A stretch of DNA of 1,601 nt, taken from assembly GCF_003334335.1 (NCBI RefSeq), contig NZ_QOWQ01000101.1. The stretch is one strand, 5' to 3'. Below the pieces are notes generated by a model. The model made no database searches. It was given only the letters and a program-made list of their open reading frames with translations, and had not been told where the DNA came from. This document shows, piece after piece, positions 1 to 1,601 of this stretch. This DNA is from Escherichia coli (GTDB lineage: Bacteria; Pseudomonadota; Gammaproteobacteria; Enterobacterales; Enterobacteriaceae). The translations under genes and the position numbers were made by a program. The stretch's first letter is position 1, and each line of letters opens with the position of its first letter.

Positions 1-1601
1 GAACTGGCCTACGCTCTCTGGCCTGGTGATGTGGATGCCGGAAACATTGACGGCAGCATCCATCGCTGGGCAAAAAAAGAAGTTATCGACAACGACCGCG
101 AAGACTGGAAGCGTATCTCGGCATCAATGCGCAAACAGCCTGATGCCCTTCGCTACGACCGCCAGACTATTTTTGGCCTTGTCCGTGAACGTCCGATCGA
201 CATTCACAAAGACCCTGTGGCACTGAACAAATACATTACTGAATACCTGACTACAAAGGGCGTGTTTGAAGATGAAGGAACAAATCAGAGCGCAACTGAT
301 ACTCTCTCGTCGCCAGTACCAGAAACTGATGCAGTGGAAACGGCAATTCCAGACAACGAAAAAACCGAATGCAAAGTGGAAGTCGAACCATCTGTAGAAC
401 GTGAGGGGCCGTTCTACTTCCTCTTCACCGACAAGGATGGCGAAAAATACGGTCGCGCAAACAAACTTTCTGGTCTGGATAAGGCGCTGTCTGCTGGGGC
501 TACTGAAATCACGAAAGAAGAATATTTCGCCCGCAAAAACGGTACATACTCAGGTTCACAACAAAATACTGGTGCATCTGACACGACCGCACAACCAGGG
601 TCAGTAAAAGTTACCGCTGACGAAGTAAACAAAATTATGCAGGCAGCCAATATCAGCCAGCCTGACGCCGATGAACTGCTTGCAGTATCACGTGGTGAAT
701 TTGTTGAAGGGATTAGCGACCCGAATGATCCGAAATGGGTTAAGGGGAACCAGACCCGCGATTCTGTGAACCAGAACCAGCAAGAAACGGAACAGAACGA
801 CCAGAAAGCGGAACAAAACAGCCCAAATGCGTTACAAAACGAGCCAGAAACGAAACAGCCTGAATCAGTGGCGCAACAGGAAGTGGAAAAAGTCTGCACC
901 GCCTGCGGTCAGACCGGCGGCAACTGCCCTGATTGTGGCGCGGTAATGGGCGACGCAACATACCAGGAAACATTCGATGAAGAGTATCAGCCTGAAGTTC
1001 AGGAAGATGATCCGGAGGAAATGGAAGGCGCTGAACATCCACACAAGGAGAACACTGGCGGCAATCAGCATCACAATAGCGATAATGAAACTGGCGAGAC
1101 GGCAGATCACCCAATTAAGGTGAACGGTCATCACGAAATCACATCCACCAGCAGGACGTGTGACCATCTAATGATCGACCTTGAAACCATGGGAAAAAAT
1201 CCTGATGCCCCGATCATCTCAATAGGTGCAATATTTTTCGATCCGCAAACCGGAGATATGGGACCGGAATTTAGTAAGACTATCGATCTGGAAACTGCTG
1301 GCGGAGTCATTGATCGGGACACCATTAAATGGTGGCTTAAGCAATCACGCGAAGCGCAATCTGCCATTATGACCGATGAAATCCCGTTAGATGATGCACT
1401 GTTACAATTGCGGGAATTTATCGACGAAAACTCCGGTGAATTTTTTGTTCAGGTTTGGGGAAATGGAGCCAACTTCGACAACACGATTTTGCGCCGTTCA
1501 TACGAACGGCAGGGGATCCCCTGCCCGTGGCGTTACTACAACGATCGCGATGTACGCACAATCGTTGAGCTGGGGAAAGCCATAGACTTCGATGCCAGAA
1601 C
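1..1601 (+). CDS. recE: Internal fragment (partial at both ends) of a large prophage RecE-like exonuclease (exodeoxyribonuclease VIII family) carrying a zinc-ribbon linker and a DnaQ-like 3'-5' exonuclease domain
   Basis: Frame 1 is open across the entire window (533 codons, no stop), while every other frame is broken by stops. Translation reads ELAYALWPGDVDAG...[25 protein letters not shown]...CTACGQTGGNCPDCGAVMGDATYQETF...DPEEMEGAEHPH...MIDLETMGKNPDAPIISIGAIFFDP...WGNGANFDNTILRRSYERQGIPCPWRYYNDRD...AIDFDAR. The segment from codon ~224 to ~348 closely resembles the RecE (Rac prophage) linker region as I recall it ([24 protein letters not shown]...CNACGQTGG.NCPDCGAVMGDATYQETF...DPEEMEGAEHPH). 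Symbol given as recE-like; the domain after the linker differs from canonical K-12 RecE. Confidence 0.6.
895..936 (+). other. Four-cysteine zinc-ribbon-like motif (C-x2-C-x6-C-x2-C) in the linker of the CDS
   Basis: Codons 299-312 read C-T-A-C-G-Q-T-G-G-N-C-P-D-C, with Cys at codons 299, 302, 309 and 312. It is embedded in otherwise acidic, Q/N-rich low-complexity sequence, typical of a small metal-binding knuckle. Confidence 0.55.
1171..1601 (+). other. DnaQ-like (DEDD superfamily) 3'-5' exonuclease domain within the long CDS, continuing past the window end
   Basis: Exo I-like motif M-I-D-L-E-T-M-G (nt 1171-1194, acidic D393/E395 in window codon numbering). Exo II-like motif W-G-N-G-A-N-F-D-N-T-I-L (nt 1456-1491, D493). 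Candidate Exo III Y-x3-D in W-R-Y-Y-N-D-R-D (nt 1528-1551). Spacing and hydrophobic beta-strand context (PIISIGAIFFDP) fit the RNase T / DnaQ / Rv2179c-like fold. Confidence 0.7.

Follow-up and report, generated by a model that had tools for sequence, protein, structure and literature searches.

A 1,601-nt stretch of Escherichia coli DNA (contig NZ_QOWQ01000101.1 of RefSeq assembly GCF_003334335.1; "the window" denotes this whole stretch, and residue numbers are those of its frame +1 unless the full-length protein is named) encodes the internal part of a large prophage protein annotated as an exonuclease. It raises the question of what two segments of strongly biased composition, one rich in Gln, Asn, and Glu (the Q/N/E segment) and one rich in His, do in this protein. 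A first-pass annotation of the window had taken the protein for a form of RecE and both segments for likely intrinsically disordered tethers between domains. Our analysis indicates, with a probability of roughly 75%, that the two segments are disordered, net-acidic linkers that flank a knuckle of four Cys residues and tether an exonuclease head to the N-terminal part of the protein; the linkers would thus connect a C-terminal DnaQ-fold 3'-5' exonuclease with the remainder of a large protein encoded by a lambdoid prophage.

The composition of each segment was compared with that of the rest of the window by Fisher test. Both peptide strings singled out in the first-pass annotation were found at the codons given there, i.e., NQTRDSV...QQEVEK from codon 250 (nt 748-891) and MEGAEHPH...NGHH from codon 341, except that the latter is 38 rather than 40 amino acids (aa) long (codons 341-380 end ...HHEI). 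Gln, Asn, and Glu make up 26 of the 48 residues at aa 250-297 (54%), as compared to 76 of 445 (17%) elsewhere (p = 6e-8), and seven of the 40 residues at aa 341-380 are His, as compared to three of 445 elsewhere (p = 1.5e-6). The descriptions of the segments as Q/N/E-biased and His-rich thus hold, while the description of codons 341-380 as acid-rich does not, with Asp and Glu (D+E) at 20% there and 19% elsewhere (p = 0.84); the true acidic patch, aa ~326-345 (DEEYQPEVQEDDPEEMEGAE), lies immediately upstream of the His segment. Hydrophobic residues are scarce in the two segments (8% and 10%, as compared to 28% elsewhere), the net charge is about -24 across the linker from aa 250 to 380 (or to ~387) and -12 across aa 298-340, and FoldIndex is -0.54 for the Q/N/E segment and -0.44 for the acid/His segment.

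For structure prediction with AlphaFold2 (AF2), aa 439-822 of the full-length protein (384 aa) were modeled on an 88-sequence alignment that included stand-alone exonucleases, with the head as an internal positive control. The predicted local distance difference test score (pLDDT) was 87-95 in the exonuclease domain, 28-32 in the Q/N/E repeats, and 28-41 in the acid/His segment, and neither of the two segments had any predicted secondary structure; AF2 thus gave no confident, conserved globular fold for the two segments. Neither a solved structure nor a Pfam family was found to cover the module, i.e., the cassette of an anchor box, Q/N/E repeats, Cys knuckle, acidic patch, and the MEGAEHPH and ETGE motifs. 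Within this module, the box is the sole part that is kept in all distant relatives; R231, G232, E233, V235, G237, I238, D240, P241, D243, K245, and G249 are invariant among 49 cluster representatives, and AF2 placed two helices (aa 206-230, pLDDT 63-72) directly before the box core, whose block averages ~50.

The Q/N/E segment is a tandem repeat, a feature that, like the Cys motif described below, had gone unmentioned in the first-pass annotation. Tandem Repeats Finder (TRF) returned a period of 21 nt, and the segment reads as seven units (NQTRDSV/NQNQQET/EQNDQKA/EQNSPNA/LQNEPET/KQPESVA/QQEVEKV). Three 24-nt copies are 75-83% alike as DNA, and amino acid autocorrelation gave 15 matches at lag 7, as compared to 1-8 at every other lag (p < 5e-5). 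When homologues were aligned for indel variability, a check proposed in the first-pass annotation, most length differences were found to be whole 7-aa units, with 4-8 units per homologue: among protein clusters formed at 90% identity, the box Trp and the first Cys are 31, 38, 45, 52, or 59 aa apart (length classes of 4-8 units), with 52 aa as the mode (55 clusters), and the few variants out of register have insertions of one or two codons or, in one case, a deletion of 25 aa. These clusters took the place of a best-hit-per-genome list for nt 676-960, which is biased to 7-unit alleles and does not represent a population length distribution; the only difference in that list is +3 nt (GGGN as compared to GGN). 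As the length of the Q/N/E segment changes by whole units, it would therefore be a spacer of adjustable length, with units gained or lost probably by slippage or unequal recombination. Two other classifications of the segment were rejected: a coiled coil, as the repeat x-Q-N-x-x-x-[AT] contains prolines, lacks hydrophobic a/d positions, and is not helical in the AF2 model, and a prion-like Q/N-rich domain, as the segment comprises just 48 aa, ~29% of which are charged.

Conservation is uneven in the acid/His segment. The MEGAEHPHKEN island is common to proteins with different head types, and MEGAEHPH is identical in the RecE proteins of E. coli K-12 and of SA53; in the junction that follows, column entropy is 1.3-2.0 bits, as compared to 0.3-0.8 for the ETGE island. 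The near-identical copy in E. coli JE86-ST05 (JE86) differs at four residues, three of which (aa 359, 371, and 378) lie within the His segment. The ratio of nonsynonymous to synonymous substitution rates (dN/dS) for aa 328-380 was 1.03 against the copy in phage Evi, 1.36 against SA53, and 1.18 against K-12 (range 0.9-1.4), values that are indications only, as counts per segment are small (Sd 4-8) and repeat misalignment may inflate dN against K-12; the copy in Stx2a_JNE160313, in which the open reading frame (ORF) is broken just after DPNDPK, was excluded. Most of the His segment thus appears to be near-neutral, and constraint may favor an acidic, polar composition with few hydrophobic residues instead of a particular sequence. 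At the downstream end, NGHH..TSTSR also occurs in more distant exonuclease relatives without the cassette and is therefore part of the head; relatives of intermediate size (239 aa; P0251 and P0253, from Klebsiella and Enterobacter) keep SGHHN ~20 aa upstream of the LMIDLE motif. In these exonucleases, which have neither box nor Cys knuckle, SGHHN closes an acidic low-complexity N-terminal tail of ~55 aa; this suggests that both the acidic tail and the GHH lead-in are older than the fusion to the RecE-like scaffold.

With 68 representatives at E <= 0.001 among 1.84 billion proteins, the cassette is rare, and its relatives show which properties of the linker are kept. Between box and head, 16 family members have 61-158 aa that are always net negative (-12 to -25), with 19-33% D+E and 2-9% Lys and Arg (K+R); each head class includes acidic linkers that have the Cys knuckle and others that do not, and the linkers of distant members are too different in sequence to be aligned. 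Composition and position of the linker are thus kept, whereas its sequence and length vary freely, which is what one would expect where a functional disordered linker spans a mosaic junction. Four different C-terminal heads follow the shared ETGE-A/S junction (i.e., the DEDDh exonuclease, two PD-(D/E)XK nucleases of the RecE type, one as in K-12 and one as in SA53, and a ~60-aa hydrophobic tail), and the profiles of synonymous divergence (dS) and of mismatches step near nt ~600-640 and ~1020. The His-containing segment would be the junction at which alternative heads have been swapped by recombination. Among the relatives, 11 (P0043, P0044, P0054, P0060, P0078, P0092, P0098, P0105, P0123, P0126, and P0164) have the cassette followed by the hydrophobic tail (...LEKLDWKRQVVIAAVYGLCANPAG...DEHMPDF) and no nuclease; these RecE-like proteins may be the nuclease-less "RecE-2" of which the available sections of a study of lambdoid modules speak (PMC12315714). 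In addition, P0143 (703 aa) follows K-12-type RecE through the first CxxC in the knuckle, where RecT-like sequence takes over directly; it appears to be an in-frame recE-recT fusion or deletion.

Disordered inter-domain tethers, as proposed in the first-pass annotation, are thus supported by FoldIndex, by a pLDDT of 28-41 as compared to 87-95 in the head, by whole-repeat indels, by a dN/dS of ~1, and by an acidic linker that is kept without its sequence. A number of points weigh against this reading. The pLDDT is a proxy for disorder, and the alignment behind it is shallow and consists mostly of close E. coli relatives; a first AF2 run (822 aa, 43-sequence alignment) gave a pLDDT of 36 throughout, exonuclease domain included, and was uninformative on disorder. 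Besides the small counts behind the dN/dS values, the Q/N/E segment itself has a dN/dS of 0.2-0.5 in most pairs and is hence under some constraint. Finally, the islands MEGAEHPHKEN, ETGE, and NGHH as well as the invariant Cys knuckle look, by their conservation, like binding motifs, and a purely passive tether is hence too simple a description. The features of the window are collected in Table 1.

Table 1. Features of the window (nt positions count from the first letter of the 1,601-nt stretch; aa, codons of frame +1)
Feature	Position (nt)	Strand	Evidence
Prophage "exonuclease" coding sequence (CDS), internal part, aa 253-785 of the full-length protein	1..1601	+	Frame 1 open; JE86 match
Conserved anchor box, aa 222-249	664..747	+	11 invariant positions; weak Pfam DUF4072 match
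Q/N/E segment, seven degenerate 21-nt/7-aa tandem repeats	748..894	+	TRF; lag-7 autocorrelation; pLDDT 28-32; FoldIndex -0.54
Four-Cys zinc-ribbon-like knuckle and conserved tail CTACGQTGGNCPDCGAVMGDATYQETFDE, aa 299-327	895..981	+	Invariant Cys; low dN/dS
Acidic patch EYQPEVQEDDPEE, aa 328-340	982..1020	+	Charge; FoldIndex to -0.82 near aa 336; pLDDT 29-30
Conserved island MEGAEHPHKENT, aa 341-352	1021..1056	+	Common to RecE-type proteins; H346 and H348
Hypervariable junction GGNQHHNSDNETGETADHPIKV, aa 353-374	1057..1122	+	Column entropy; dN/dS; ETGE island at aa 363-366
Lead-in NGHHEITSTSRTC, aa 375-387	1123..1161	+	Travels with the DEDDh head, not with the linker module; pLDDT rises to 41
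DnaQ-fold DEDDh 3'-5' exonuclease domain (Rv2179c-like), starts DHLMIDLE, runs past the window end	1162..1601	+	PF16473; AF2; Foldseek

The head that the linkers would tether is a DnaQ-fold domain with a confident AF2 model. Pfam PF16473, the sole Pfam domain found, matched with E = 3e-53 in the window and E = 6e-67 in the full protein, and the top Foldseek matches, at a probability of 1.00, were T4 DexA (8KEL; E = 3e-10), DnaQ, RNase T, and Orn. Direct reading located the predicted catalytic motifs Exo I (D-x-E, in MIDLET, aa 391-396), Exo II (the Asp of NGANFD, aa ~488-493), and, beyond the window, Exo III (H-x4-D, in HNALDDA); dN/dS in the domain is 0.13. In the DnaQ family, the catalytic metals are held by acidic residues of the domain itself. 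Stand-alone exonucleases of 183-190 aa begin M-N-H-LMIDLE, and the domain in the window therefore starts at about aa 388. A Chi octamer (GCTGGTGG) is present on the minus strand at nt 1145-1152, within the TSTS codons and exactly at the boundary between linker and exonuclease; the chance expectation is 0.04 per window, and the octamer was present in 8 of 200 shuffles. The copies in JE86, Evi, and HannyBb all retain the octamer, despite a dS of ~1.5 in the Evi exonuclease domain, and it might be linked to head swapping.

Between the two segments, CxxC-x6/7-CxxC (aa 299-312), with C299, C302, C309, C312, and PDCG invariant among the 49 representatives, is followed by GAVMGDATYQETFDE; with a dN/dS of 0.07-0.27, this knuckle has the lowest ratio of the cassette. 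It is the pattern of the Cys residues that suggests a zinc ribbon: Pfam Zn_ribbon_3 reaches just E = 4.8, and this on K-12 RecE (aa 514-535), no zinc-ribbon Pfam match was found in the window, and the AF2 pLDDT at the knuckle is ~47. At aa 305-308 (nt 913-924) the window reads CTACGQTGG-NCPDC, with a spacer (GGN) that lacks one Gly codon of the common GGGN; this allele is rare, with just 10 of 4,111 E. coli records at least 99% identical to the window over nt 676-960.

Such conservation could also mean that the module is an interaction hub, in which the knuckle and the EHPH/ETGE motifs bind a partner or DNA ends and the polyanionic flanks act as DNA mimic, auto-inhibitor, or recruiting arm. 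This alternative, which we consider rather unlikely, overlaps with the reading as tethers, as disorder is kept and only the role differs. The invariance of the four Cys and of PDCGAVMGDATY together with the low dN/dS of the knuckle would fit a hub, as would the persistence of the EHPH and ETGE islands across head types, the reuse of one cassette with four heads, and the statement in a review that full-length RecE outperforms its nuclease fragment in linear-linear recombination (PMC11611040). However, many family members have just the acidic linker, with neither knuckle nor motifs; conservation among E. coli prophages may merely reflect recent common ancestry and recombination; no annealase gene adjoins the exonuclease gene in the near-identical JE86 prophage, and no partner was identified. 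A more far-reaching idea, which we put forward as a speculation that is probably wrong, is that the cassette is a portable adaptor of RecE and at least three other heads that recruits a common partner or DNA ends, with the number of heptads tuning its reach, the polyanionic arms serving as DNA mimic or auto-inhibitor, and the Chi site at the boundary promoting head swapping; if true, this adaptor could be the unexplained element behind the better linear-linear recombination by full-length RecE.

Metal binding by the His-rich stretch, also raised in the first-pass annotation, found no support and is very unlikely. While the excess of His (7 of 40 residues, as compared to 3 of 445), the conservation of the HPH pair (H346 in 90% and H348 in 82% of sequences), and the proximity of the four-Cys motif are in its favor, the other five of the seven His are conserved at just 43-65%, dN/dS is ~1 and pLDDT ~30 in the segment, the linkers of distant relatives contain 1-6% His, and the DEDDh head binds its catalytic metals by its own acidic residues. 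Judged from sequence, the invariant CxxC...CxxC would be a better candidate for a metal site than the histidines.

Even less probable is that the 21-nt repeats serve mainly as a DNA element in cis (such as protein-binding iterons or a hotspot of recombination), with the peptide composition as a by-product. The 21-nt periodicity and the presence of mosaic breakpoints and a conserved Chi site nearby might suggest such an element, but the similarity of the repeat copies as DNA is just that given above, length variants are mostly in-frame whole units in the peptide register, the lag-7 signal is strong in the amino acid sequence, the repeats do not include the Chi site, a search for promoter-like sites found none, and Rfam gave just one sub-threshold, chance-level match (nt 973-1016). 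As for the three minus-strand ORFs of 100-161 aa that overlap the region (414-899, 740-1114, and 865-1167), it is scarcely credible that any of them is a real overlapping gene, as equal stop-free gaps arose in 13% of codon-order shuffles and 16% of synonymous shuffles, no PHROG or NCBIfam match and no promoter-like site was found, and RefSeq annotates just the sense CDS. The same shuffles do not support the first-pass proposal that low-complexity composition accounts for these ORFs: the region is T-poor (12.7%, as compared to 21.3%), yet antisense stops are barely less dense than outside (2.8 as compared to 3.3 per 100 nt), and the His segment alone holds seven. The antisense ORFs are chance ORFs whose occurrence can be explained without recourse to low-complexity composition.

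With regard to the gene as a whole, frame +1 is open from end to end of the window (nt 1-1601, 533 codons), and the window is 99.8% identical to locus JL003_RS08290 (WP_097518794) of NZ_AP022815, E. coli JE86-ST05, which encodes the 822-aa protein. In JE86, this annotated "exonuclease" gene is located downstream of dicB/ydfD and upstream of xis/int, in a lambdoid prophage beside ompW. The window was matched in 4,744 of 5,426 complete E. coli genomes, with a coverage of at least 80% in 3,599, and also in temperate phages (e.g., mEp460, PPompW, HannyBb, and Evi). Two further stretches lie upstream of the cassette. Nt 271-390 (aa ~91-130; DEGTNQSATDTLSSPVPETDAVETAIPDNEKTECKVEVEPSVE) encode a second acidic stretch of low hydrophobicity (FoldIndex -0.27, net charge -9), which is the part most divergent from phage HannyBb (19-22 mismatches per 60 nt) and probably another linker. 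Nt 397-564 (aa ~133-188; GPFYFLFTDKDGEKYGRANKLSGLDKALSAGATEITKEEYFARKNG) encode an element with two predicted strands and two predicted helices, for which the pLDDT is ~80 even in the poor full-length AF2 model; no Pfam family matches this element, and it is not present in RecE. Some phage records label the gene exodeoxyribonuclease VIII; what it encodes is a fusion of a scaffold related to RecE with a 3'-5' exonuclease of the DnaQ type.

The system closest to this cassette is RecE of the Rac prophage, and the likeness is confined to one part of the protein. Identity as RecE was rejected: against the NCBIfam RecE equivalog (NF007259), the protein scored 267 bits with a cut-off of 1269, just profile positions 271-602 of 877 were matched, and a 191-aa window fragment mapped to positions 452-600 of 877 (220 bits). 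PF06630 (Exonuc_VIII), present at aa 2-178 of K-12 RecE, is not found in the 822-aa protein, and the PD-(D/E)XK nuclease (Pfam DUF3799, aa 615-850 of K-12 RecE; PDB 3H4R) is absent from both the window and the full protein, which have PF16473 instead, so that the window head is a DEDDh 3'-5' exonuclease as compared to the 5'-3' nuclease of RecE. There is no neighboring recT either; recE and recT are adjacent in the Rac prophage, whereas xis and int follow the gene in the JE86 prophage. BLASTP gave 39% identity to K-12 RecE in a gapped alignment of 372 columns (window aa 10-374), with no alignment beyond RecE residue 588, and 62% identity to SA53 RecE over 188 aa (E = 3e-65); only window aa ~187-370 are homologous to RecE (K-12 aa ~455-592). 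Within that part, the RecE proteins of K-12 (b1350) and SA53 have the same order of box, heptad Q/N/E repeats, CxxC-x7-CxxC with GAVMGDATYQETFDEE, acidic patch, MEGAEHPH, and ETGE. The part around the Cys knuckle is identical to RecE at 27-29 of 30 positions (27 for K-12) and the His part (aa 341-368) at 16-17 of 28 (17 for K-12), while the heptads number seven in the window, five in K-12 RecE, and six in SA53 RecE. The first-pass view of the segments as diverged from K-12 RecE is thus correct only in part: the protein is not RecE and K-12 RecE holds both segments at the homologous position (aa ~478-592), but its Q/N/E segment is two heptads shorter and its His part agrees at 17 of 28 positions. 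In RecE, the cassette likewise sits just upstream of the crystallized nuclease (3H4R starts at residue 605), in a stretch with no Pfam family; a 2023 review describes the N-terminal region of RecE as a domain of unknown function (PMC11611040), and the linker cassette thus sits in a functionally unexplained region of genuine RecE. Our literature search found no paper on a zinc motif or disorder in RecE, nor on Rv2179c-like prophage exonucleases. The repeats, the four-Cys knuckle, and the head-swap junction provide construct boundaries and mutagenesis targets for studies of full-length RecE or of the prophage exonuclease.

Among the exonucleases, the head shares its catalytic domain with T4 DexA (PDB 8KEL) and with stand-alone prophage 3'-5' exonucleases (PF16473), of which the enterobacterial ones are 56-63% identical; the stand-alone enzymes lack the linker, the Cys knuckle, and the N-terminal region of the window protein. 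Lambdoid recombination modules with DnaQ-like 3'-5' nucleases have been described (Genome Res 2025; PMC12315714), and the window gene is likewise a gene of a lambdoid early left operon with a DnaQ-fold nuclease; the available sections of that study also note relatives of RecE that lack the canonical nuclease domain ("RecE-2"), and make no mention of the linker cassette, of polymorphism in its repeats, or of the Cys knuckle. A disordered linker of acidic composition is an ordinary and unsurprising feature of a mosaic phage protein, and, as far as those sections go, the linker reported here is an undescribed example of it, among DnaQ-type nucleases and nuclease-less RecE relatives that had already been noted. 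Unlike disordered linkers with tandem-repeat length variation in general, the linker in the window, for which disorder is predicted, is broken by an invariant four-Cys knuckle and short conserved motifs; with that general class it shares low hydrophobicity, high net charge, a composition that is kept while the sequence is not, whole-unit indels, and a location at a domain or mosaic boundary.

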